Shown here in pieces: positions 20,000-52,011 of a DNA stretch of 64,000 bases. The position numbers and the translations under genes were made by a program. Origin of the DNA: a virus (lineage: Duplodnaviria > Heunggongvirae > Uroviricota > Caudoviricetes); the IMG/VR virus record IMGVR_UViG_3300027673_000001, positions 18,759-82,758 of that record; one strand, 5' to 3'. Position 1 is the first letter of the stretch, and each line of letters opens with the position of its first letter. The notes below the pieces were generated by a model that worked only from the letters and a program-made list of their open reading frames with translations, was not told where the DNA came from and did no database searches.

Positions 20000-21886
20000 T
20001 TAGCCGCCGATTTCTTCAAAGTTCACGCTAGTGCGTGCTGCAATGAAGTTCAGTGTAATGAAGTTGATTGAACGGGCAGGCTTGATGAAGATGTCAGCCA
20101 CGAATCTGTTGGCATCAATCACGTCGCCGGTGTTGTTGGTTTCGTCGCACTTAACTCTGAAGTCAGTGATACCTCTACGTCCCTGAACATCACGCAGGAA
20201 TGGCTCAACCAAAGATCTGAACTGAGCTCTTGTGAACGGGTCGTTGAACTCGAACAATTGGAACTTAGCTGCAATAGCAATAGCCTTCTCGAGAACAATG
20301 AACAGCCTACGAACGTTGATACGGTCAAAAGCTGATGGCTTAGACAAAAGAGTCTTGTCGCCGAAAAGAACTGTACCTTGTCCAGGGAAGGAAACCACTG
20401 GGTTCACGCCGGACTTGTAAAGAGTGTCTCTCGATACTTGGTCTGGGTTGAAGGACAGCTTGACTACGTTCTTGATCTGACCTCTGTTATAACCACCAGG
20501 AGAGAACCATGGATCATCAGTGAAGTCAGTACGGGCACATAGACCAGCAATGTCTGCGTTCAGAGGAACCCAACGATAGACGTCATTGTAACGGTCATAT
20601 TGGTACTTGTAGCCAGAGTCCATTGCCGCGTAGGAAGTCGAAGGAAGTAGGTTACGGTAAGCAACAATTTGGCTTGCGAAAGTCTGTCCTACACCAACAA
20701 TAATCTCTCCAGTAGATGTGTTCTCTGGGGAAACAAAAACCAAGCAGTCCTTACGGGTTTCAGCCACGTTGTTGATAACGAAAGCTGCTGTTGCTGCAGA
20801 AGCCTTACCAAGGAACAACAGACTAATGTCATATGCTTCGGCGTTACCGAAAAGAGCAAAACCATTCTGCTTGTTACCTTCAGTTGCGTTGAAGTCATCA
20901 GCGCCACCAGTTAGTGTGACTGTCAAAGGAGCAGCCAAGCTAGTGAACGTCACAGCAGGACCTGTTTCCTTACCCCAGTCCATACCAGTTGGGTGATCCA
21001 TCCAGTAAACCCACTTAGATGAGTTGTTCAGTACGAACTTGTAGTAGGTGTTAGTGCCGTCTGCTCTACGACCATTGCTTGCCTTGCTCATGAAAGCAAA
21101 CTTCTCAAGGATACCGTTAACGGTTCCTGTGATTACGCCCAGGGCATCGAGAACGATGATATGAACTTCGTCGTCTGCAGGGGCTCCGTCGAATTCGTTT
21201 TCAAAGTCCCAACCGTCAAACGTATCTGCGTCTGCCATGGAGACTTTAACGGAGTTACCAAGAGTGCCTGGATACTTGGCTGCAAACTCACCAACAACGC
21301 CACCGCCGTTTTCATAGTTGACTTCATAGTCAGTGATATTGTTGATCTTGATGCCGCCAACAGTTACCGTCGCTGTAGCTGTCGCGCCAGTTCCGTCTGG
21401 GTCTGTGATTGTGATAGTTGCGGATGTGTAACCGCTACCTGGGTTGGTAATTGTAAGTCCAGTCACAACACCTGCGGTTGATTGAACAGTTACAGTTGCT
21501 TGAACACCGCCTGCTGTCTGAGGAGCAGAAACAGTAGCTACAGGAGCAGTATAACCACTACCGCCTGCTGTCACCGCAACGGATGTAAGGCTACCAGTTT
21601 GAGTAGAAACAGCGTTTCTTTGACCGCTTGTATCAAGCCTAACCAAGAGCAGGTTATTGCTGTAGGAAAGGAAGTTTGCAGCGGAGAAGAAAGACATAGC
21701 TGTGCCATCGTTAGGAGCGCCATATCTTTGCACGAGTTCGTTCTCGCTCGTTACAATAATAGGATCCATAACAGGACCCCAGCGAAACACACCAGCAAAC
21801 GCTCCATTTGAAGTGGATACCGCCGGAACGATGCTAGTGAAATCTTTTTCTGTTACCTGTACGCCAGGGGATAGCATAAACGCCAT
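20000..21886 (-). CDS. gp18: tail sheath protein with an inserted GSGY beta-module
   Basis: SPGVQVTEKD, WFSPGGYNRG, LFGDKT, FDRINVRRLF, IKPARSINFITLNF. Confidence 0.97.
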   Translation of the reverse strand: MAFMLSPGVQVTEKDFTSIVPAVSTSNGAFAGVFRWGPVMDPIIVTSENELVQRYGAPNDGTAMSFFSAANFLSYSNNLLLVRLDTSGQRNAVSTQTGSLTSVAVTAGGSGYTAPVATVSAPQTAGGVQATVTVQSTAGVVTGLTITNPGSGYTSATITITDPDGTGATATATVTVGGIKINNITDYEVNYENGGGVVGEFAAKYPGTLGNSVKVSMADADTFDGWDFENEFDGAPADDEVHIIVLDALGVITGTVNGILEKFAFMSKASNGRRADGTNTYYKFVLNNSSKWVYWMDHPTGMDWGKETGPAVTFTSLAAPLTVTLTGGADDFNATEGNKQNGFALFGNAEAYDISLLFLGKASAATAAFVINNVAETRKDCLVFVSPENTSTGEIIVGVGQTFASQIVAYRNLLPSTSYAAMDSGYKYQYDRYNDVYRWVPLNADIAGLCARTDFTDDPWFSPGGYNRGQIKNVVKLSFNPDQVSRDTLYKSGVNPVVSFPGQGTVLFGDKTLLSKPSAFDRINVRRLFIVLEKAIAIAAKFQLFEFNDPFTRAQFRSLVEPFLRDVQGRRGITDFRVKCDETNNTGDVIDANRFVADIFIKPARSINFITLNFIAARTSVNFEEIGG

Positions 21887-21954: not shown

Positions 21955-23598
21955 TCAAATGTTCATAAAGCCGACATCAACAGTTTGCCAACCGTCGTCG
22001 CTGCTTTGATTTCCGTCATGGAAGAAGCCAACAGGCAAAACTTCGTTGTCGATCATCTCAAGTCTGGCTCTATACATACTCTTTCTTATATCTATGTCAG
22101 TCAATTCCTTGAAATACGCCTGGCTTGTCAACCAACCAAATATAACCAAAGTCATAACTAGGTCATCATGGTAGCCGTCGTCAGCGGCATATGAATCCTT
22201 TTGTTCTATGAAAGTAGAAATCTCAGAGATTGTGTTCATATCGTTTACCAGGAGCTTCTGGTTCTCGATGAGGTCCTTTAGCATAGTGCAGCCTATGCGC
22301 TTTGTTTTCTTGTCCTGGAGAACACCCATTTGAGTAGTTCCGCCTCCAAAGCCGCCGGAAACTACTTGACCTTTGGTGTTTCTAGTTACATAGATGATGT
22401 TCTCATACTCAAGTTCATAGTGAAGTATGTGAGGTACTTGTTCTGACTTGTTGATTTCTATGAGAACAAAGGCATCATTGTATTCCTTTGCCAGCTTATA
22501 GATGACGTTGGGATAAACCAATGGGCTTATCTTGTTTGATGAAAAGGATGCAACTACCTTGTATGGTAGCTCGTCTACTCTTATCACCTGGAAAGCAGAA
22601 GAGTCTCCACCGACTCCTGAAGCCGTATCGCAAACCATAACGTAAGCTCCTGGTTTTTCTAGGAGCTTTTCGGCATTCATTGTTCCCTTGAACGGAGCCT
22701 CGAATACCCTCAGCCCTTCTTCTGTTATGTGTATTGGTTTCAGGGCAGCCATCTTTTGTATGGCATCTGGCGATATCAGAGTAGCAGCAGAGCCAAGGAA
22801 GTCCATCAAGACCTCCTGGCGGTACTTCAACGGTCCAAGAAGCTGCTCTTGTTCCTTTGCCCACTTTTCGTCGTGTTCTGGGTGTTCCCAGTATTCGACC
22901 CTAACTGGTTTGAAGCCGTTTATTCCTTGCTCTGCTTCTGTCCAGAACTTCCAGAAGTGGTTCAAGCCCAGAGGCGTAGAAGTGAGGACAATCTTGGTTG
23001 TCTTACCGGCGGAAATTGTCGGGTAAGTAGCAGTGAAGAACTCATCAGCTACGGTATTTGGGATGATAGCTGCTTCGTCGATGTACAGAAAGTTAACGGA
23101 CTTACCACGAATACCCGATGAACTTGTCGCCGCAGTGAAAGCTGCGCTGTTATTCTCGAACTTAATGGAACCTTTGTTCCATTCCACCACGCCCTGCTGT
23201 AGCCACTTCGGTAGACCTTCAATCATAAGTTGCATACGAGACATGATTTCCCGTGCCGCCGACGCCTTGTTAGCGAGAATAGCTACAGTCTTGGAGTCAT
23301 TGAAGATAAGATACCAAACAAGGTATGCAGCCACGGTTGTTGTTTTACCGTGCTGACGAGGAAACATACCAAGCACTCTTCTGTTCTCATGCAGAGCAGT
23401 AATGAAGTTTACCTGGTAGTCGTAGAGTTTGAATGGAATGAGACCGTGGTCAAGGGATATAATCTTGATGTACTTCTTGATGAAGTAGATAGGATCATAG
23501 GTACACTTGACGTATTCCTTGAAGTCCTCTTCTGTGTAAGGGATTGAAACCCCTGCTGCCTTCAGCCTGGGGTTGGCATTATAAAACGGTGCTGGCAT
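21955..23598 (-). CDS. gp17: terminase large subunit
   Basis: Walker A PRQHGKTT, YIDEAA, STPLG, nuclease DTASGVGGD and DDLVM; no intein or intron. Confidence 0.97.
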   Translation of the reverse strand: MPAPFYNANPRLKAAGVSIPYTEEDFKEYVKCTYDPIYFIKKYIKIISLDHGLIPFKLYDYQVNFITALHENRRVLGMFPRQHGKTTTVAAYLVWYLIFNDSKTVAILANKASAAREIMSRMQLMIEGLPKWLQQGVVEWNKGSIKFENNSAAFTAATSSSGIRGKSVNFLYIDEAAIIPNTVADEFFTATYPTISAGKTTKIVLTSTPLGLNHFWKFWTEAEQGINGFKPVRVEYWEHPEHDEKWAKEQEQLLGPLKYRQEVLMDFLGSAATLISPDAIQKMAALKPIHITEEGLRVFEAPFKGTMNAEKLLEKPGAYVMVCDTASGVGGDSSAFQVIRVDELPYKVVASFSSNKISPLVYPNVIYKLAKEYNDAFVLIEINKSEQVPHILHYELEYENIIYVTRNTKGQVVSGGFGGGTTQMGVLQDKKTKRIGCTMLKDLIENQKLLVNDMNTISEISTFIEQKDSYAADDGYHDDLVMTLVIFGWLTSQAYFKELTDIDIRKSMYRARLEMIDNEVLPVGFFHDGNQSSDDGWQTVDVGFMNI

Positions 23599-24302
23599 TA
23601 GAATCCTTCAAGCCATTGCTCCACAATTTCATCTGTAGGGAGATTCTGGGACGCAACATAGTTAAGCTCTGGCTGAGTAAGGTTAGCTTCGACTTGTTTG
23701 ATAACGGAAGTTTCTTTGACTTTGCCGTATAGGTTTGCCTTGGCTGTAAAGTTCAAAGTGTGGACAACCAAGCGCCTAACATCAAGACCACCTTCGAAGT
23801 CGTCGGAAAAAGAGACGCTATTCAACACATAAGGAACATCTGTGATGATGTTTAGAGCAGGGACGGTCCTTAGGGATAGCGTTTGTTCTGGAGCAAAGTA
23901 AGGGAGTATCTGCTCCAAAATCTGCAGGGCATCTTCTTGGTTGTTGGTTGCAAAGTAAAGCGAAAGATCTATGTTGTATGGCACAGGGGTGAGTACTGAC
24001 TCAATGCCTGTTTCATCCGTACACCTTACAGTTTGTGCTCTATTGAGTTTCCTGCTTGGGTCGTAACTATAACCAGTCAACTCAAATGCCAGCCTCGGTA
24101 GAGAGGTTGACGTTCCTGCCCCCTCGGGATTTTGCTCTATGGCTTGCATCCACTTTTGCTTGTTTGAATACGCAATAGGGACTTTGATTTCCTGCTCTGT
24201 CACCCCTTCATTTTGTCTTTCAAAACGAATGTCAGAGAACATAGAGCCAAAACCAACAAGTATTGACCTTATGGTTTTGTGGTAGAATGGTGTTTCTATC
24301 AT
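23598..24302 (-). CDS. gp15: tail sheath stabiliser / completion protein
   Basis: FYHKTIRSILVGFGSMFSDI, KVPIAYSNKQK, LPRLAFE, QILEQILPYFAP. Confidence 0.93.
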   Translation of the reverse strand: MIETPFYHKTIRSILVGFGSMFSDIRFERQNEGVTEQEIKVPIAYSNKQKWMQAIEQNPEGAGTSTSLPRLAFELTGYSYDPSRKLNRAQTVRCTDETGIESVLTPVPYNIDLSLYFATNNQEDALQILEQILPYFAPEQTLSLRTVPALNIITDVPYVLNSVSFSDDFEGGLDVRRLVVHTLNFTAKANLYGKVKETSVIKQVEANLTQPELNYVASQNLPTDEIVEQWLEGF

Positions 24303-43510: not shown

Positions 43511-43720
43511 TTAATCCTTGTTGTCTATCGTATTTATGATTTGCTGTAGCATTTTCTTTATGGAACCAACATCTTCTTCAAGTTTTTCGAGTCTGCTGGC
43601 TCTTTCTTGCTCTGCTCTCATCCTCGAGAGTTGGGCATCATTCTTTACGACAATACCACCATTGGGAGAGCGAAAATGACCGGGCAGTTCCTGCCCGTCT
43701 TTGTTGACTATGGGTATCAT
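43511..43720 (-). CDS. small conserved virion-associated coiled-coil protein
   Basis: 69 aa; [17 protein letters not shown]...[15 protein letters not shown]; follows the large structural gene. Confidence 0.7.
43531..43538 (-). promoter_or_regulatory. late promoter variant CATAAATA for the fibre operon
   Basis: Inside the last codons of the 69-aa gene; SD AAGGA follows. Confidence 0.6.
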
Positions 43721-46158
43721 GTTGCTAGTATAATCACTCTGTAGTTATCAAGAACAGGTACAATTGAGGGGTCCTGAGTTCTTAGAACTATCTTGATGTC
43801 ATATACGTCAAAGGGTGGTAGGTTGTCGATGCTGAACTCATAGTCCAGGTATTCGTTTTCCCTAACTGAAAGGTTTCTCTCCACAGGGCAGCTCATAAGT
43901 TTCCACTCTAGTTCCCTATGTGTTTGACCAGAGCCAGATAGAGAAGATCTGAAGTAGACTTCGAAGCTACATTCCCTTCTGGAATATGCGCTTACAAAGA
44001 CCCTAGCTCCCTTGGAAACACTAGCCAAAGTGACTGGTTTTGAGATGTACTTTGAAAGTGCAGAACCTCCGCTTGGTAGGAGTTCGGTGTTGAACTCAGA
44101 CATCTGTGCCTGAGCAGCAGCACCGCTTCCACCACCACCGATTAGTTGAACAAATGGGACTTCCCTGAATCCAGAACCTGGGGTGTTGACTGTGATCCCA
44201 GTCACTACACCGCCCGCAACAGTGGCGGTAGCTGTTGCGCCGCTACCCGAACCAGTAATGACCACAGTAGGAGCCGTAGAGTAACCAGATCCAGGATTCG
44301 TCACTAGAATGGATTGGATCGTGCCTGTTGAGTCCTGAGCCTCAATGGTCTCACCATCTTGGTTGTTGATAACGTAAGATACAGTCTCCAGAACTTGCTG
44401 TTCTCTAACGGCCACGAAAGGAGAGGTGTTTCTGTTTGTTGACGTCATCCTGATATTGATATCAGTTGCTGTCTGCCCAAACATTCTTTCTTCTTGGTTC
44501 TCTGGAGACACGATCCAGTTGTTGCCAGGAATCACGTTATTGGAGTTTAGCCTAATGTTTGACTCCTGTCCTATTTGGTAACCAGTACTTGTAGGTCTCA
44601 GAGTGGCTGTCAACTCAGTGTCTGGAAGAACACCAGCTGGAATGATTGGTGTAAAGATGTGGGCTAGTCTGTTAGTACCCACAACAAAAATCGCTTCAAC
44701 GATTGCAGTCAGCTGAGCACCGCTTCCGCCGCCGCCTAGGACCGTAACAGAAGGAGCGCTGATGTAACCTGTTCCGGGGTTAGTGACGTTAATGGAAGTG
44801 ATTACGCCCCCAGTTAGAACAGCAGTAGCTGTGGCACCAACGCCGCCGCCGCCAGAGATAACGATTGTAGGCGCAGATGTATAACCAAAACCTCCGTTGT
44901 CGACTTCAATACTCATTACCGTATTTGTCGAAGCCAAAGTACCTGTAGAAGTCGCAGGAGACAATGCCGAGAACGTAAGAGTATATGGGCTTAGAACAGA
45001 GGTGACTGTGAACTCACCATCAAGACTGGCTGCTGGGATACCCCTGTAAGTTTTACCCGGGAAAGAACCCAGTTTCAACACAGAGCCTACTTCTAGTTGG
45101 TGCTGGTGGTTGAAAGTAACCGTTACGTTTGTGGAACCACTTTCGACGGAGAATTGATCACCGAGAACTAGAATGTCAGATGAGTTTACGGAATAGTTTA
45201 GGTTACCAACCACATTAGTGTCAAACCTTGCTTTCCAGATTCTAAACTTGATATCCTCTGTTTGCTCAGCCGTCCAAGTTACGTTGTTCTCTGATTTGAA
45301 CAAGGAACCGATGAATGGCTGTTCAAATATGGTCTGACCCGTTTCCCTAGAAACTTCGCCTAGCTTTGAAGTCCAAACTTGGTAGCTATTTGAGTTTGCT
45401 GCCAGAACAAAGCAGTAATCCTTGTCTTGTTCAAGATACACTGGCGTATCAAACACAAAGGATGTTGGAACAGATGCATTGTTTGACACGTTAACCTGGG
45501 AAGGATTTAGAGTAGCTTTTGCATACCTATTCACTAGAGTTCTAGCAGGCAAACCTGTTTGAAGTTCTCTAATGTCCAGAGTGACAGGCACTGCATTGTC
45601 CTTACTTTGGAACCAGATATCGATCTTGGTAATGAAGCAACCACCAGTAACACCAAAGGTGAAGAATGATTGCGCCAGGGGGTCACCAGGTGGGGGTGGT
45701 CTGGTGTTTAGGATGTTTGTTGTTATTGTTGTTGTGTTGATGGTAGTAAGAGTTTCTTGGAAAGTTCTCTTAATACCCTCAGTTTCAAAGTCTGCATCTG
45801 CCCCGGAGGTTGTGCTTCCAGGTATAGTCCCTGTAAGTTGGAAAGATGGTGTGTCCTGAACCTTTAGGTTTCTAATACCTGTGTTGAATGTTGCGGGTGG
45901 GCAATGGAAAACAAACCTAGCCTCGCCTTGGGCGTTTGTAATGATTGGTCCGCCCTTAACCCCTCCCTGGGGTGTGACAAACTGAGCAATAGATCTACCA
46001 TCAAAGAAAGCATAGAGCCTTGTTGACGGTCTGGCATTCGTCACTGTTACAGATATGTCTATAGCCCTCATAAAGGCTATAGACGAAACACCCACCAGAT
46101 CAGTTCTACTAATCTGTCTGGTGCTTTGGTTTGTGACTATGTAGGTACCTTCAGACAT
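43717..46158 (-). CDS. large virion structural protein, C-terminal half of a DUF4815/VrlC-type protein
   Basis: FMRAIDI...[40 protein letters not shown]...EDIKF; four GSGY-type modules. Confidence 0.82.
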
Positions 46159-49100
46159 TCTTATCTCCGTTTTGGGTATTTATGCCTGTGTCTTGGAATG
46201 ACTTCATAACTCTAATCAACAAGTAAAGCCCCGTGAATACCACAATGCAACCAAGACCAGCAAGTCTTCCTGCTTTGGCTTTAATCTTAGCCTTTGCGAA
46301 GCGACCAACCACAGAGGAAACAAACTTACCTATCTTCATAAGTTTGGCGCCAATCTTGTTGTCAATGTCTCTCTTACCCATAACGTAAGCCATATGCTCT
46401 GCCCATGGGGTGGCAATCTCATAGGCCCAGCTAGTTGCCCAGTTCTTAGTTCTGGCTTTCTTTTCCTCTGCATCTTTAATCCAGAAGAACATATCAGGAC
46501 CTTCGCCCCTCATCCAGTCAACTACTATCTCGGCCCAAGCATGGTAGCCCTTCATTACTAGGGGTTCTTTTTCTGCTAATAAAGCACCAAATGCCTGGTC
46601 AGCTTCAAACGTAGTTAGATCCATCAGGCCTTTGGCAAAGAGTTCTGTGCAGATGATCTTGCCTCCGCCACCGCCGCCGCCGCCTCCCCCGTCACCGGAA
46701 TCGCCTCCAGGACCACCAGTACCGCCATCCCAAACGTCATTGATCCTGGCAATAGGTCTTGGAGGAGCAATGAACTGGGCGTTTGAACCGGCTGGAGGCG
46801 CCCAGTTCCATGGGCGACGCACAGTAGCCGAAACTGATTCGTTGGTTGTGTTGAACACTCTTGGTAGGTACTCAACTTCAACCCAGTTATCGAAACTAGG
46901 CGTGAGATTCATATCACCGGACCAAACATATACCGCGAATGGGTTTACGTTCGTAACTCTGCTTGACAGGGGTTGTTCAGCAAAAACCACTTCGGTGTAG
47001 GGTAGAGTAGCTATGTCTCCAGTGATTCTGAAGTTGTTTGAAGACGCCGTCCTGACCATAGTGGATTGGGCAACGTCTGTCCTAGGAATGATCTTACCGT
47101 CAGCATAGGTTACGGTGAACTCTTCGCTGTAGATGTCACTGACTTGGTCTGGATTGAGGAAAGTGTCAACAAGGTATCCACTCTTGAAGCGGGTCAGTCC
47201 TGTCGCAGAATCAACAATCTCAAAGTTTACTAGATTGTTTTCTGTTTGGGACAACAAACTAAACTGCTCAAGATTGAAGAGTCGGTCCTCAATTTTACCA
47301 ACGTCTGACATAGTGTAGACGCGGTTCTTTGCTTTGGTAACGCTGATATCGTTAAGAGTTTCTGTGTATGCCTCAACCCTTATAGTAGCCAGAGGCATGG
47401 TTGTCTCTGGAACAACAGGTACTCTTGGCGTATCCGCTGGCTCGCCAGTAACGACGCCGATTCTTCCGTCCTTTGCCACAAAGACAGAGTCTATTCTTGG
47501 GACAAAGTACTGAAGTGAAGTCACGATTCTCGAGTTGAACTGTACCAAGTCTATAGTCCTGGCAGTAGCTACAGAGAACGAACCTGTGTCGCCAATCCTA
47601 GGACGGAAGTCCAGGCAGTTCTTCAGATCATATTCGACACCAGAAGACCTTGAACGATATGTGGGTATTTGAGTCAGATAATCAACGCCTAGAGTTCCTT
47701 CATACGAATCCGCGGAGAAGTAGTCCCCGGATATGTCGTGCTCAAAGTAGTCAAACGTTATGGATACTGCGCCTGCAGGTGCAGCACCTGCGTTAGTGAT
47801 GGAACCAAGAAGGTATGCGTAATCTCTCTGGCCGTTATCCAAACGATATCTTGAAGTAATATCGCCCGTGCCGTCGATAACAGAAACAAGTCTGAAGATG
47901 TCTGCCTTGCCGAGCGATATGGTAGTGGTTGGACTACCAACGTTCAACGTGGTCCTAACTAGAGTTTTGTTCTTTCCTGCCAACCCTTGCTTTGTGACAG
48001 AACAAATCACCGTAAGAGTAGTGGACACTGGACCACCAGTGATTGTTAATTCTGTTCCTGCGGGGTTCAGGGACGCCACGGAAGGAGAAACAACACCAGA
48101 CGCCCCAACGATGAGGATATTACCAGCTTCGATAGGATCGATGGTTTGACCAGACACAGTAACGGAACCATTACCAGAACCGTTAGTAGCAACAACAAGT
48201 TCCCTATATGACTTGTATGTAATGTCTGGGATGTTTAGGGCGTTTCTAACTCTTCTGGTAGAGTCCACAGGAAGTCTAATGATAGAAGCGCTATCTTCGT
48301 TAGTTACGGAGAATACCTTATCGGTGATTGTTCCATTGGCGTTGCTTGTTGCGCCAATGATAGTATCACCTAGCCTAGGAGTTGCGAGGGTATGCGTACC
48401 CTTGTAGACAAACAGAGTAGAAGTGCTTCTAGTCCATCTATGAACGATGGCTCTCCTAACGTTGCTATTGAAGTTTACAGTTTCGCCAACTTGAAAGTCA
48501 ACCACAGTCCCAGGGACAGTCAGTCTCTGAAGGACTCTCATACTTCCTCCAGAGAATCTAACTCCACCAACGTCCTCTAAAGAAGCGCCGGGGTTGAGTG
48601 TTAGGTTGGAGAAGAATAGTTGGTAAACAGCAGCCTGGGAAGCTGGGTCCCCCTCTTGGTAGTCAATGGCGATTACCCTAGCGGATCCTACTTGAGTGGC
48701 AGCACCGTTCGCTGGGTTGGCATCGTTCCAGAGTGTAACTTCTGTTTGCCTTGCGATTGAAGGGAAGCCAAGAAGGTTTGATACAAACAAGTATTGACCA
48801 TACTTAGGCTGAAGGGAAACGTTACTTCTTGTCTTGATGTGGTTTGCTACTCTACCCTTATCGAGTATGAGATCAGTAAAACCTGGCTTCTCAACTTCAA
48901 AACCCTGAATGTAAGCCTTACCTTCTGAAACCCTAGCGACAAACTTGTCTCTGTTTCCTACAGGTGCTGGAAACACCCCGTTGTTTAGGTCAAGTTTAAG
49001 GTGTTCCTTAATGTCAATCTCGAGTCCGTTTACCACATAGTTGCCAGACTCATCGAAAGTTCTTCTGGCTATGCTCTTTTCTAGCTCGTTGTACTTGGGG

Positions 49101-49897
49101 TACCTGGAGTGTTCTTCTAGGTTGCCCTCATTGTATCTCATGATCTCAATGTAATCATCAGTCAGCTCTTCTGAGAGCGGTAGAGATTCGAGAATGAGTT
49201 GAATTCTATGTCTGTCTGCGCCAGGAGCGGCAAAGTTGAAGCTGCCCTGAGCTGGATCAAGGAGAGTCAAATCCTCATCTGCCGTGATAATGTCTTCCTG
49301 AATCCTAAAAACAACTCTAGCTGATGGGGAACTGTCATACTTGTCGATTATAACAGACTGGGGTAGAACAGTAACAAAAGTACCTCGGCAGTAGAACACC
49401 CCACGGTTCACGAACGCCATGGAACCAGTGCCTGTTGGGTCAGTAGTCTGTACCGTAAGAAGAATGTTAGTACCTTCTACCTGAAGAACTTCATCTGGCT
49501 GAAATTCTCTTTCACCATTGTTACCGCCTCTAAGGTAGCTTAGGTAAAAAGTGAGGGGATCAGTAGTAGTTTGAGCTGCAATCTTTCTTACTATGGCTCT
49601 GATGCCCGTAAGAGTGCCCAAAACAATAGAACCTTCAACTTCTTCTAGGTTTTGCGTGGTAGGTTGCAGTTTGACATATGAGGAAGCAAGGTCTGCAAAG
49701 CTGTTACCTGGGATTACAACAGACCCATGCTTAAAGACATGATCGCCAAACTTCTTGATTTGGTCCTGCAGTATGGATTGAAGCTGGGTTAGTTCCCTTG
49801 CTTGTACTGGCAGAGTTGGCTTGAAGAGGATTTTGTGGAAGTTGTTATCTTCGTTAAAATCATCGTAGTATGGGTCAAATGGGAATTGTGAAGCCAT
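46151..49897 (-). CDS. large virion structural protein (DUF4815 N-terminus) ending in a Gly-rich/KIICT/TM domain
   Basis: PYYDDF...[21 protein letters not shown] start; ETFDESGNY-like motif; VNPFAV; C-terminal [10 protein letters not shown]...GYHAWA. Confidence 0.85.
46177..46184 (-). promoter_or_regulatory. late promoter variant CATAAATA for the 813-aa gene
   Basis: Inside the 3' end of the 1248-aa gene; SD GGAG precedes ATG 46158. Confidence 0.6.
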
Positions 49898-49911: not shown

Positions 49912-52011
49912 TCAGAATGTTATGAAGGTCTTTATTGTTATGCTCTGTTCTTCGTTGAACTCAAACGGCGGGTCAGACGAAACATACAACAACCTGCCTG
50001 AGTATTTATCCATGTCAAAAGAAGTTCTGGCTTCTGTGGTTATCATCTGTATAGAAGAGTTGTCTATCCTAGTCAGGATACCTAGAGGTATGACTGTATC
50101 TCTATCCAAGGGAAGCAGGGATACAGTATCAATCGTAAAGTCAACCACTCTATATTTGTTGTTCTCAAAGACAAATATTTGGTCCTTGGATAGGAACGTA
50201 GTATCCTGAGCTCTCATGGTATATGTCAGCAAGGAGCTAAGGGAGTTGTATCTTGAACCAGTGAAAATGTTCGTTGGGTTCTTGATGATACCAAAAAGTC
50301 TATAGTCCTGAACAACCTGCTGGGCACTGATGTCGCCTCTTAGGGGAGTGTTTATTACTACAGTGGTACATAGAAGCTCAGATGGAGCGTCCTTACCGTG
50401 CCCACCCACTGGGGGAAGTATGGGATATGCCCTGGCTCTACTTTCCTCAAGTATCTCTTCGTCTGGTCTAGTAGGGTCAATGATAACGATTTCTGCGCTA
50501 GTATAGTCCCTACCAAAGTCTATGACGTTGATTCTCTTAATCTGCCCAAAGACAATCACAGGAGACACTCTAGCCCCAGTGCCGTTACCTCTAACCTCTA
50601 CGGTTGTGCTAGCGGAATACCCAGACCCACCATTTGTAACTTCCACGGCATAGATTGCGCCAGGTATAGCAGTTTGCTCAACAACAGCTTGTCTGCTTTC
50701 AAAGTCAGAGGGAGTGATAACCCCCCTGAGAATTGCTCCAGAGCCAAAGGTAGAGTTTACCGTCAAAATGCTGTTGGTGTAACCAGACCCCGGGTTTTCA
50801 ACGATAACGTCGATGATCTTTTCTTCGTATATTAGGGGACTAAATTGAGCACCTGTTCCATCACCCTGAACAGTTATGGTTGTATCAGTATCTACTGGAT
50901 ATCCAATACCAGGGTCTATGATGTTGGCAAATTTGAGCTCACCACCAAACGCAATGCCCTGCAGAAGAGCCGTTGGGTTACCATAAGCTCCCGCACCCTG
51001 ACCAGTTGACGTAACTACTTCGAGAGTGGGGTTCGCAGAATACCCCACGCCTGGGTCTATGATTCTCGCTTCGAGAATAGAACCATCTATCCTAGAAATG
51101 ACAGGTATAACAATGGCTCCACCCAATACAAAGTTCACGGTGTCTGAGTTATCATAACCAATACCACCGTCTTGAATAGTGATGCCCGTAATCTCACCCG
51201 CCACGTTGGTCACAGCAGACAGTATAGCACCGGCGCCTGTCAGGGAATCAACAGCAACCCTAACACCATTGGTGTAACCAGATCCAGGGTTGACAATAGT
51301 AGCTCCGGTTATTGTACCAACCACGTTGGTGATTAGAGTAGCTACAGCGCCAGAGCCCGTTGTAGGTCCAGATACGTTGATGAAGGTAAGCTGAGCATCC
51401 AAGTAACCAGATCCTTCATTAACAACCGCCACGGAGTCAATGGAGCCATTGTTGTAGAATGTTTCGCTGATTGCTCTCTTAACTGGCATGAATTCAGGAG
51501 AGCTAAACCTAGACCTAAAATATGGAGTTACGGTATAGAGATACTTCCAAACATAACCATCTATGGTGGTGAAAGGATAGAGACTCACAATGTTTGGTTC
51601 TTCGAAGGAAGCGTTTGGTGTTTCACCAAACAAGCTACCGTTGTCAAGACACTTGTAAACATGGTTGTCAGAGGATATGACATAGAAGTTCTTATCTGTC
51701 ATATCGAGAGTATTGTCCCACTTGTCATAGACAGTGTTCTCTGTCCAGACAATTCTTCTAACGGCAAAAGAGATGTCGTTCGGCGAAATCTGTTTCGCAA
51801 AAAGAATCTCGGATCTTATACGTCTGTCTGCCTCAGCCGATACATCAGCTTCAATAGCTGGTGGTTGATCCAAAGATCCTTCGCCACCAACTCCTGTCCA
51901 TGGTTGAGTACCACCTAGGAAGTAGTAGTATTTGGATCTCTGGAATTGCAGGTCATCAAGAAAGAGTTTGGCTAGGTCGCCACCAAACTCCCGACGTATG
52001 GAAATTGCCAT
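49912..52011 (-). CDS. gp8: baseplate wedge subunit (gp8-like) expanded by GSGY modules
   Basis: RRIVWTENTVYDKWD, FYVISSDNHVYKCLDN, DGYVWKYLY, PPVGGHGKD, DYRLFGIIKNP. Confidence 0.85.
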   Translation of the reverse strand: MAISIRREFGGDLAKLFLDDLQFQRSKYYYFLGGTQPWTGVGGEGSLDQPPAIEADVSAEADRRIRSEILFAKQISPNDISFAVRRIVWTENTVYDKWDNTLDMTDKNFYVISSDNHVYKCLDNGSLFGETPNASFEEPNIVSLYPFTTIDGYVWKYLYTVTPYFRSRFSSPEFMPVKRAISETFYNNGSIDSVAVVNEGSGYLDAQLTFINVSGPTTGSGAVATLITNVVGTITGATIVNPGSGYTNGVRVAVDSLTGAGAILSAVTNVAGEITGITIQDGGIGYDNSDTVNFVLGGAIVIPVISRIDGSILEARIIDPGVGYSANPTLEVVTSTGQGAGAYGNPTALLQGIAFGGELKFANIIDPGIGYPVDTDTTITVQGDGTGAQFSPLIYEEKIIDVIVENPGSGYTNSILTVNSTFGSGAILRGVITPSDFESRQAVVEQTAIPGAIYAVEVTNGGSGYSASTTVEVRGNGTGARVSPVIVFGQIKRINVIDFGRDYTSAEIVIIDPTRPDEEILEESRARAYPILPPVGGHGKDAPSELLCTTVVINTPLRGDISAQQVVQDYRLFGIIKNPTNIFTGSRYNSLSSLLTYTMRAQDTTFLSKDQIFVFENNKYRVVDFTIDTVSLLPLDRDTVIPLGILTRIDNSSIQMITTEARTSFDMDKYSGRLLYVSSDPPFEFNEEQSITIKTFITF

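Follow-up and report, generated by a model that had tools for sequence, protein, structure and literature searches.

Split VrlC baseplate protein of an uncultured T4-like phage bears a C-terminal module from a large unnamed phage family

The baseplate protein VrlC of an uncultured T4-like phage is almost certainly made as two polypeptides, the second of which continues VrlC with almost nothing lost. The first polypeptide ends in a glycine-rich tether and a module opening with the motif KIICT, which belongs to a very large, phage-borne and unnamed family without prior description. The window, meaning the whole stretch of 64,000 nucleotides analysed here, is T4-like phage DNA from an uncultured source, and all features of the split VrlC locus lie on its minus strand:

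46151-49897, minus strand: ORF1, 1248 aa, with the VrlC N-part, the Gly linker and the KIICT module
46727..49897, minus strand: VrlC/DUF4815 N-part, ORF1 residues 1-1057 (Pfam DUF4815 E 4e-59; phrog_358 E 7e-244; alignment with pf16 gp123 6-967)
46661..46726, minus strand: Gly-rich tether of 22 residues, as read from the sequence
46283..46660, minus strand: KIICT helical bundle, ORF1 residues 1080-1205, starting with the conserved-Cys motif KIICTEL
46208..46264, minus strand: hydrophobic terminal helix of 19 residues, with a basic run (10 residues) before it and one Lys after it
46151..46153, minus strand: ORF1 stop codon TGA, within the ORF2 start region ATGTCTGA
46177..46184, minus strand: CATAAATA, a T4-late-promoter-like box 19-26 nt ahead of the ORF2 ATG
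46165..46168, minus strand: GGAG ribosome-binding site, 6 nt ahead of the ORF2 ATG
43717..46158, minus strand: ORF2, the VrlC C-part as its own gene, 813 aa (pf16 gp123 1016-1407 and 1528-1635; phrog_358 1316-1684)
49912..52011, minus strand: gp8-like baseplate wedge gene immediately upstream of ORF1 (phrog_438 E 1e-92)

VrlC is a core component of two-layered baseplates, where it stands in for T4 gp7, and it is among the few proteins common to pelagimyophages and cyanomyophages, serving as a marker of double-layered baseplates (PMC7029224). The gene order of the window (gp5, gp25, gp6, wedge, gp8-like, VrlC) places VrlC in a baseplate module behind the gp8-like gene, and the succession of gp8-like gene and VrlC is common to the window, Mosig, pf16 and Syn9. 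The N-terminal region of ORF1 matches PF16075 (DUF4815) with E 4.4e-59 and 200.7 bits (cut-off 30). Across the 2056 positions of the phrog_358 profile, ORF1 covers 8-1128 (E 6.9e-244) and ORF2 covers 1316-1684, collinear with ORF1 but in a second gene. BLASTP against pf16 gp123, a single ORF of 1635 aa, aligns ORF1 7-1034 with gp123 6-967 (E 4e-148), ORF2 22-421 with 1016-1407 (E 6e-62) and ORF2 703-813 with 1528-1635. The gap between the halves is 48 residues in gp123 and is spanned by about 44 residues in the window, hence nothing notable is missing between the two ORFs. The original prediction, made from the sequence alone, had proposed that a normally single-chain VrlC is split here and that the segment FMRAIDI...RLYAFFDG continues the same polypeptide. 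Both proposals are borne out, as gp123 and phrog_358 cover both halves and ORF2 resumes on gp123 after the part aligned to ORF1.

In the three cultured relatives examined, VrlC is one ORF each: Pseudomonas phage pf16 gp123 (1635 aa), the protein of Pelagibacter phage Mosig/HTVC008M (2045 aa) and Synechococcus phage Syn9 gp105 (2391 aa). Both window halves are homologous to these single chains at 31-37% identity. The single chains are without the KIICT module, whereas the window chain is cut at the hinge corresponding to pf16 967-1016, with a leash and a foreign domain on its N-half. In the window VrlC is thus not a single polypeptide, as ORF1 stops at 46151-46153 and ORF2 begins anew at 46158. 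Splitting is normal within the VrlC clade to which the window belongs, and almost every one of its nearest metagenomic relatives shows it. The notion that homologues are normally two genes, named at the outset as a possible refutation, therefore fails for the cultured phages but holds for these closest relatives. Across KIICT-bearing relatives, VrlC is cut at no fewer than three different positions.

ORF1 runs through ...ARINDVWD into the 22-residue Gly linker and then the 169-residue domain starting KIICTEL before its stop, and the span first flagged (46151-46740) extends from the ORF1 stop codon back to INDVWD. The linker and domain together make up a foreign insert of about 190 aa, bearing out the suspicion of an insert at the split. 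The ORF2 ATG (46156-46158) and the ORF1 stop (46151-46153) lie within an 8-nt overlap in ATGTCTGA. Translation of ORF2 would restart over the ORF1 stop, behind its own late-promoter-like box and Shine-Dalgarno sequence, and the start signals earlier ascribed to ORF2 are indeed present (CATAAATA at 46177-46184, GGAG at 46165-46168). The motif ATAAATA occurs nine times in the 64-kb window vs 6.6 expected from shuffles, which is no enrichment. All nine copies lie on the coding strand, and five of them fall 19-53 nt upstream of a gene start according to the window's ORF table.

Alternatively, an intron, an intein, a frameshift or ribosome hopping might rejoin the two ORFs, or an assembly error or a pseudogene might account for the break. 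We regard this group of explanations as exceedingly improbable. The GGC-rich repeat of the Gly codons might in principle allow slippage, but the stop at 46624 closes the ORF2 frame upstream of the ATG, so that no single frameshift reads through. The 575-nt insert has no Rfam intron match, the only hit in 45500-47500 being a chance-level HOTAIR_2 (E 0.49), and the module lacks Hint or intein features. An assembly artefact at the junction, raised as a caveat beforehand, is unlikely because the 1248-aa protein is recorded on three contigs and because a relative sharing about 68% identity in the N-part and 59% in the second gene has the same layout (1249 + 814 aa) in two independent assemblies. 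Conservation of the layout and purifying selection in diverged relatives and independent assemblies also argue against this group of explanations.

The KIICT module is predicted to be a helical domain. AlphaFold2 models the 169 residues as six helices with no strand (mean pLDDT 86 and pTM 0.78 for the whole model), and the bundle (residues 1-120) contains helices only, with block averages of pLDDT 87-95. Pfam, PHROG, NCBIfam and PDB gave no match for the module, and the structure-comparison matches include neither a toxin nor a pore-former fold. Across the family it opens with KIICT[KE]L, in which the Cys is nearly invariant, and mostly closes with a hydrophobic helix flanked by basic residues; it is rich in Trp (4.5%). 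The bundle shares 64% identity with the L005 copy, with pN 0.26 vs pS 0.72; its conservation equals that of the VrlC body and synonymous sites are saturated. Such sequence comparisons point to selection on the bundle.

The original prediction had likened the module to a Hint-type auto-processing domain or a CFI-box-CTERM-type tail, neither of which withstood analysis. Hedgehog/Hog and BIL Hint domains resemble it in having a Cys that follows glycines where a passenger protein ends. Hint domains have an all-beta fold, whereas the window module is all-helical in the model. No Hint match was obtained in Pfam or NCBIfam at E <= 0.1, and neither TxxH (block B) nor a terminal HN is evident on reading the sequence by eye. 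The lack of profile matches and blocks, together with the all-helical model, rules out a Hint, intein or Hog identity, and the window's module has no evident self-cleaving chemistry. The Cys described as lying just after the Gly hinge is the fourth residue of the helix-forming KIICT motif, four residues past the glycines, rather than the first after them. GlyGly-CTERM, PEP-CTERM and CFI-box-CTERM signals and tail-anchored proteins share with the module a Gly-rich stretch and, behind it at the very end, a hydrophobic helix with basic residues. CTERM sorting signals are short, about 25-35 residues, and their motif adjoins the transmembrane helix. In KIICT, a conserved folded bundle of about 125 residues stands between Gly hinge and helix instead, and NCBIfam detected no CTERM-type sorting domain.

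True Hint domains do occupy this VrlC end in sister lineages, where Hog-like caps take the place of KIICT, or they sit before KIICT. A Hint domain lies directly ahead of the module in at least six clusters (..VHN-K(K/P)-KIICTKL or VHN-CGGGGS-IICTKL), and Pfam and NCBIfam Hint matches were obtained for the Hint-bearing relatives P0092 and P0223. This releasing domain is present upstream in those six clusters and absent from the window's own protein. A Hint domain before a C-terminal payload is an architecture for releasable payloads, and Zhang and colleagues reportedly described Hint domains as releasing modules in polymorphic toxins in 2012. In some relatives, the Hint domain would free the KIICT module. 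The Hint domains ahead of KIICT and the Hint-type caps in its place lend indirect support to the putative cleavage and membrane tethering during assembly that the original prediction envisaged. The closest split VrlC N-halves include 40 without a cap or with only a short low-complexity tail. In the window's clade, the C-terminal end of the N-half carries interchangeable caps.

The KIICT family comprises at least 1,916 clusters (profile search, E <= 1e-3), and the homologues found include 82 of near-module length and 424 longer ones. The distance from motif to protein end is 150-170 residues in most of 181 motif-bearing proteins, and the profile match ends at most 10 residues from the C-terminus in 263 of 340 representatives. 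The domain always sits at the extreme C-terminal end of its carrier. Linkers ahead of it in other members are poly-Gly, Pro-rich or Cys/Asn-rich. Six genomes were searched: each of the three complete ones has a single copy, as do two of the partial records, and the third partial record has two.

Carriers of the module are diverse, and those identified serve injection or face the host. P0201 (130 member sequences) is a central spike of the gp5 type, encoded at the gp5 locus with gp53 and gp25 on either side, and P0173 is a gp54/gp19-like tube protein adjoining gp48. Further carriers have Gly_rich_2 fibre-like (17/71) or DUF4815 (10/71) domains, or PA14 or Ig modules. In the podovirus HMO-2011, a remote KIICT copy (hhalign 96.6%) forms the end of a 762-aa protein whose gene lies between those for portal and coat. 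One C-terminal module is thus shared by spike, tube and baseplate carriers (P0201, P0173, DUF4815), which is a payload-type architecture. The commonest carrier, about 300 aa long and Cys/Asn-rich, is encoded among non-structural genes next to PhoH, a radical SAM enzyme and a 2OG oxygenase, and is at most a candidate virion protein. On the domain tree, VrlC-attached copies fall in at least four separately supported places, the gp5 and gp54 copies are sisters, and 20 carrier changes contrast with a minimum of 11. The domain thus moves between carriers.

Frequent carrier swaps on the tree, several different VrlC junctions and a commonest carrier among non-structural genes would also suit a selfish or independent cassette. 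Such a mobile module would land in frame at permissive ends of late genes and function on its own as a membrane protein in infected cells, for instance in superinfection exclusion or lysis timing, with the carrier providing expression only. We consider this very unlikely. The family has no free-standing copies, and the two '147-aa' forms inspected proved to be truncated gene calls. Neither a mobility gene nor a target-site signature was seen, and the carriers are spike, tube, baseplate and fibre-like proteins rather than random late genes.

The constant C-terminal position, on proteins that presumably form trimers or hexamers (gp5 spike, fibres, tube), could point to a cap for folding or oligomerisation. 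Having lost the downstream chain that nucleates assembly, the N-half would rely on the module as a registration or chaperone domain, akin to S74 in function and kept, or removed where Hint is present. The other alternative caps at the same VrlC end would fit. Peptidase_S74 chaperone domains are likewise terminal accessory domains of about 150 aa, following a linker on fibrous virion proteins, and can be removed. No match in sequence or fold was obtained between them and KIICT, which lacks a Ser-Lys site and adds a hydrophobic terminal helix. The S74 family (PF13884) gave no Pfam match and no PDB sequence match and is absent from the Foldseek/VIA fold matches, where absence does not exclude the family; no other chaperone family matched. 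The 40 capless or low-complexity N-halves indicate that a cap is not needed for folding, and the hydrophobic tail and 4.5% Trp are left without explanation. A role as folding cap hence seems improbable.

The hydrophobic tail suggests contact with a membrane. The TM-like end noted initially stands, with a Kyte-Doolittle mean of 2.1 over 19 residues and 17 consecutive uncharged residues. The hydrophobic helix lies within the last 50 residues, as in tail-anchored proteins, and membrane association is predicted from sequence. The best 19-residue Kyte-Doolittle window within the last 50 residues reaches at least 1.6 in 202 of 218 family members. A Lys follows 11 hydrophobic residues of the tail in 163/218, hence the tail may be amphipathic or buried rather than transmembrane. 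Some members have clear transmembrane helices with at least 20 uncharged residues. The tail is absent in about 33 of 340 scored representatives, in the HMO-2011 copy, and in P0366 and P0367 (same VrlC site).

The terminal helix has more positive charge on its N-side, as would be expected of a tail-anchored protein with N-in topology. The helix might pin the nascent baseplate to the inner membrane of the producer cell, the module later being cut off or pulled out and absent or idle in the virion. T4 baseplates are membrane-associated, the identified carriers are all baseplate, hub or fibre parts, and a single copy in five of the six genomes would agree with one anchor for each baseplate. A Hint domain immediately ahead of the module could remove it, and the Hog-like Hint caps at the same VrlC end in sister lineages are in line with this. 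Such a tether for assembly would leave the strongly conserved 125-residue bundle and the tailless members without explanation. Most members, the window's included, also lack a cleavage device, and release would have to rely on some other protease. We judge an assembly-time tether rather unlikely.

We tentatively favour a tethered membrane-engaging module, a possible reading that falls short of probable and draws on analogy. The two VrlC halves would reassemble in the baseplate without a covalent link, leaving the new C-terminal end of the N-half as an exposed, host-facing socket where accessory caps would be exchanged by recombination. The KIICT cap would be a membrane-engaging module on a flexible leash, and its likeliest target would be the host envelope at infection. 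The analogy is with contractile injection systems, whose spike and tube proteins bear C-terminal extension domains, as in T4 gp5 lysozyme, in the type VI secretion effectors of the evolved VgrG, Hcp and PAAR kinds, and in the polymorphic toxins borne by MuF. KIICT is likewise one conserved C-terminal module on gp5-type spike, tube-family, baseplate and portal-adjacent proteins, and likewise joined by flexible linkers or a Hint domain. It differs in having no enzymatic or toxin fold and no immunity gene, with delivery only putative. In contrast to polymorphic toxins, the module is conserved and the variation lies in the carrier. The tailless members and the Lys-broken tails count against this reading, as do the commonest carrier of about 300 aa, the lack of any toxin or pore-former fold among the structure matches, and a degree of sequence conservation that a tip in contact with a receptor would rarely show. 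It is more doubtful that KIICT represents a new class of phage tip device, namely a conserved soluble-to-membrane helical domain, leashed on a host-facing part chosen by each lineage (spike tip, tube initiator, baseplate VrlC or fibre), that inserts in the host envelope to lock the baseplate or open a DNA route.

VrlC is a two-gene protein in many uncultured lineages, with the hinge end as a swap site for accessory caps. The KIICT family of about 1,900 clusters has no entry in Pfam, in PHROG or among known structures. With roughly one copy in each genome, and with the central spike among its carriers, it is a concrete and abundant experimental target. The '147-aa hypothetical proteins' should be corrected as truncated gene calls, and the domain deserves its own family entry. 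If KIICT is a tip device, it would parallel effector-tipped VgrG and Hcp on the phage side, filling a gap in phages without a gp5 lysozyme or PAAR tip. The target of the module bears on how aquatic T4-like phages handle membranes, at entry or assembly, and on how structural genes tolerate cutting and capping.

VrlC, a DUF4815 baseplate protein, is encoded in the window by two adjacent genes, ORF1 for the N-part and ORF2 for the C-part. Both come after a gp8-like wedge gene, in the order gp5 (with lysozyme), gp25, gp6, wedge, gp8-like, ORF1, ORF2 and fibre genes. The source record is a complete virus of 162,860 bp with direct terminal repeats, and every feature described lies on the minus strand.

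Features at the VrlC split in the window
46151-49897, minus strand: ORF1, 1248 aa
43717-46158, minus strand: ORF2, 813 aa
6 nt upstream of the ORF2 ATG, minus strand: GGAG
19-26 nt upstream of the ORF2 ATG, minus strand: CATAAATA box

VrlC/DUF4815 occupies ORF1 residues 1-1057 (PF16075, E 4e-59; phrog_358, E 7e-244). ...INDVWD is followed by a Gly-rich stretch of 22 residues; the last 169 residues of ORF1, which open with KIICTEL and end in ...NV, are here called the KIICT module. The ORF1 stop is overlapped by the ORF2 ATG (ATGTCTGA). The window has nine copies of ATAAATA, all of them on the coding strand, a total not above chance (9 observed vs 6.6 expected). Five of these copies (window 9831, 13501, 19411, 43531 and 46177; minus strand) are probably T4-type late promoters given their location 19-53 nt upstream of late-gene starts. 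ORF2 also contains two pairs of repeat modules at residues ~400-490 and ~600-690 (window 44089-44361 and 44689-44961) with the motif G-GY-(S/T)-(S/T)-AP(T/S)V...G.GA.A.A. Matches to many 'virion structural', 'baseplate wedge' and 'Hoc-like' PHROGs identify these as decorative repeats common to T4-like aquatic phages.

Comparison with the single-ORF gp123 of phage pf16 shows the split to be genuine and clean. ORF1 residues 7-1034 align to gp123 residues 6-967, while ORF2 residues 22-421 and 703-813 align to gp123 1016-1407 and 1528-1635. The 44 unaligned window residues correspond to a 48-residue gap in gp123, hence the inserted material consists of the linker and the 169-aa domain and nothing more. 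VrlC of phage Mosig (2045 aa) and gp105 of Syn9 (2391 aa) are single chains too, at the equivalent genomic position. A relative (L005/L006) has the identical layout of 1249 + 814 aa in two independent assemblies. Synonymous sites between the window and L005 are saturated (pS 0.72-0.81), and the inserted bundle (pN 0.26, 64% identity) is about as conserved as the VrlC body (pN 0.23, 68% identity). The terminal tail retains hydrophobicity at an identity of only 31%. Judged by these substitution patterns, the inserted segment is a translated domain under selection. Rejoining at the RNA level through an intron or RNA element was discarded, as an Rfam search was negative and no intron model matched. 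Frameshift read-through from ORF1 was likewise discarded, because the frame of ORF2 has a stop at 46624, upstream of its ATG. The two VrlC halves would most likely come together again non-covalently. The region had no megablast match among cultured phages, and neither the split nor the module is mentioned in the literature searched on DUF4815 and VrlC. The arrangement varies two known themes: structural genes that are split, and accessory domains borne at the C-terminus of spike or baseplate proteins.

Searches of Pfam, PHROG and NCBIfam assigned the module to no family, and a sequence profile search of the PDB found no relative. An AlphaFold2 model from a 40-sequence alignment (pLDDT 86, pTM 0.78) predicts helices at residues 3-9, 15-31, 33-50, 64-93, 102-123 and 132-163. 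Foldseek of this model against the PDB returned nothing at E <= 0.001, BFVD only uncharacterised phage relatives, and the ESM Atlas only unnamed viral clusters below 0.9. The best hits of a VIA-wide fold search were the helical NEL E3-ligase domains of SlrP, SspH1 and IpaH (Z 6.8, 5.9 and 4.0), an identity that was dropped since the scores fall within the quoted helical-bundle noise and the module has no CxD motif. The original observation of a VrlC split by an insert with a TM-like tail was borne out, and the proposed Hint-like or sorting-signal chemistry was not. A Hint or intein nature was rejected, since Hint domains are all-beta and the predicted model is all-helical, and no Hint profile matched. 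A short CTERM-type sorting signal was set aside as NCBIfam gave no match.

KIICT is a large domain family without a database entry. Homologues in a 90%-identity collection comprise 82 near-length and 424 longer proteins, and at 50% identity the family counts 1,916 clusters at E <= 1e-3 and 1,040 at the stricter 1e-10. The opening motif reads KIICTKL in 169 of 181 motif-bearing proteins, with Cys replaced by Ala once, and is located 150-170 residues from the C-terminus in most. The Cys column is invariant in an alignment of 71 clusters, and Trp content is 4.5%. In 263 of 340 proteins no more than 10 residues separate the end of the match from the C-terminus, and the remainder have divergent hydrophobic tails. 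The best 19-residue tail window reaches a Kyte-Doolittle score of at least 1.6 in 202 of 218 members, and in 163 of the 218 a Lys follows 11 hydrophobic residues. Uncharged tail residues number 17 in the window's subfamily and at least 20 in some members. The tail is absent in ~33 of the 340 proteins. A tether to the inner membrane of the producer cell during assembly, as originally proposed, is the nearest rival to the reading we prefer and would draw on the same hydrophobic tails; we regard it as unlikely.

Free-standing 147-aa KIICT proteins turned out to be shortened gene calls in the two cases inspected, with KI[IV]CTKL in frame upstream; a run of N interrupts one gene, and an inverted join in the scaffold interrupts the other. 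In the metagenome scaffold L008 (4900-5000) the poly-Gly-coding repeat is present as its reverse complement directly before GGKIVCTKL, and the opposite strand has a gene call of 803 aa. This orientation may be due to a mis-join of the scaffold or to a genuine inversion at the low-complexity repeat.

Almost all of the VrlC N-halves closest to that of the window (40-70% identity) are split; they measure 985-1313 aa and end in a variety of caps.

C-terminal caps among the window's nearest VrlC N-halves
None or a short low-complexity tail: 40 proteins
Module of ~100 aa, (F/W)ARDLGL(V/I)D...INFWQSR: P0373, P0376, P0358, P0369, P0378, P0395, P0397, P0399
KIICT-family domains, with or without hydrophobic tail
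KI(I/V)CTAMNE.YGF variant, C-terminal ~130 aa: P0344, P0363, P0384
Hog-like Hint then ~85 helical residues, C-terminal 220-260 aa: nine proteins (P0342, P0345, P0347, P0350-P0352, P0354, P0364, P0386)

The split is the ancestral state in this clade, and the hinge end of VrlC is a swap site for caps. Proteins with the (F/W)ARDLGL(V/I)D cap have no precomputed Pfam family beyond DUF4815. The KI(I/V)CTAMNE.YGF variant opens with poly-Gly and the motif and goes on with ..EVGYH.LFLP.V..; its similarity to the KIICT profile is confined to the first ~35 positions, which points either to very remote kinship or to a KIICT head that is a separate unit. The Hint caps lack the terminal His-Asn (..VYNLWL.GD.TY.VNG..TTSI) and resemble Hog, in which a Hint is joined to an adduct-recognition tail. 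A role of KIICT as a folding or oligomerisation cap, to be set against the 40 N-halves with no cap or a short tail, seems doubtful.

Carriers of the module extend well beyond VrlC. The gp5-type spike P0201 (130 member sequences), encoded between gp53 and gp25-gp6, combines an OB domain, a short repeat region, a PPPPPSGGGG linker and the module, and the gp54/gp19-family tube protein P0173 adjoins gp48. Carriers in the 71 clusters include Gly_rich_2 (17), DUF4815 (10) and Hint-type (4) domains, as well as PA14 and Ig modules. A Hint domain is fused directly before KIICT in at least six clusters (...VVHN-K-KIICTKL; once VHN-C). The commonest carrier is a ~300-aa protein with a Cys/Asn-rich linker, encoded immediately after a radical SAM gene and between PhoH and 2OG-Fe(II) oxygenase in 28 of 29 loci. 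In L069 (6107-9891; also L020-L066) this cassette reads PhoH, radical SAM enzyme (483 aa), ~300-aa carrier, two small ORFs and 2OG-Fe(II) oxygenase, and the carrier comprises an N-terminal 55 aa, an NCNCNCS stretch and the module. Identity across loci is 71-100% for the enzymes and 24-66% for the small ORFs. The adjacency of the Cys/Asn-rich stretch to a radical SAM enzyme suggests that the enzyme would cross-link the linker in a thioether-type manner, as in RiPPs.

Among 50,697 phage records, tblastn of the module found only SynMITS9220M01 gene 028 and, weakly, gp49 of Puniceispirillum phage HMO-2011, an abundant marine podovirus. The remote copy (RVICTELYKQG..., hhalign 96.6%, without tail) ends gp49, a 762-aa protein (L092:5069-7357) encoded between portal and scaffold/coat genes, a position similar to that of MuF/SPP1 gp7-type head proteins. 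gp49 has no Pfam or PHROG match, and the HMO-2011 paper says nothing about it.

VrlC fusions with KIICT are cut at differing sites. In Mosig coordinates, the window class is cut at ~1275/1376, a 1770 + 730 aa class at ~1417/1427 and L089 at ~1416-1500/1531, and L075 and L048 differ again. In a quick search of a domain-only tree, copies on VrlC occupy no fewer than four positions with separate support, gp5- and gp54-borne copies are sisters (98% SH-aLRT), and carrier changes number 20 against a minimum of 11. A semi-autonomous cassette would also move among carriers; we consider this explanation improbable. A single copy is present in each of three complete genomes and in each of two partial records, whereas a third partial record has two. 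The two-copy record, G003 (that of L051), is the sole multi-copy record among six searched, with KIICT-domain genes at 20723-21223 and 23107-23619, ~2 kb apart, in open frames of 589 and 342 aa.

We suggest that the KIICT bundle, with its usually hydrophobic end, would be tethered flexibly to those parts of the injection machine that face the host, sometimes preceded by a putatively self-cleaving Hint. By analogy, the module may tentatively be seen as a membrane-engaging device that would act on the host envelope at infection.
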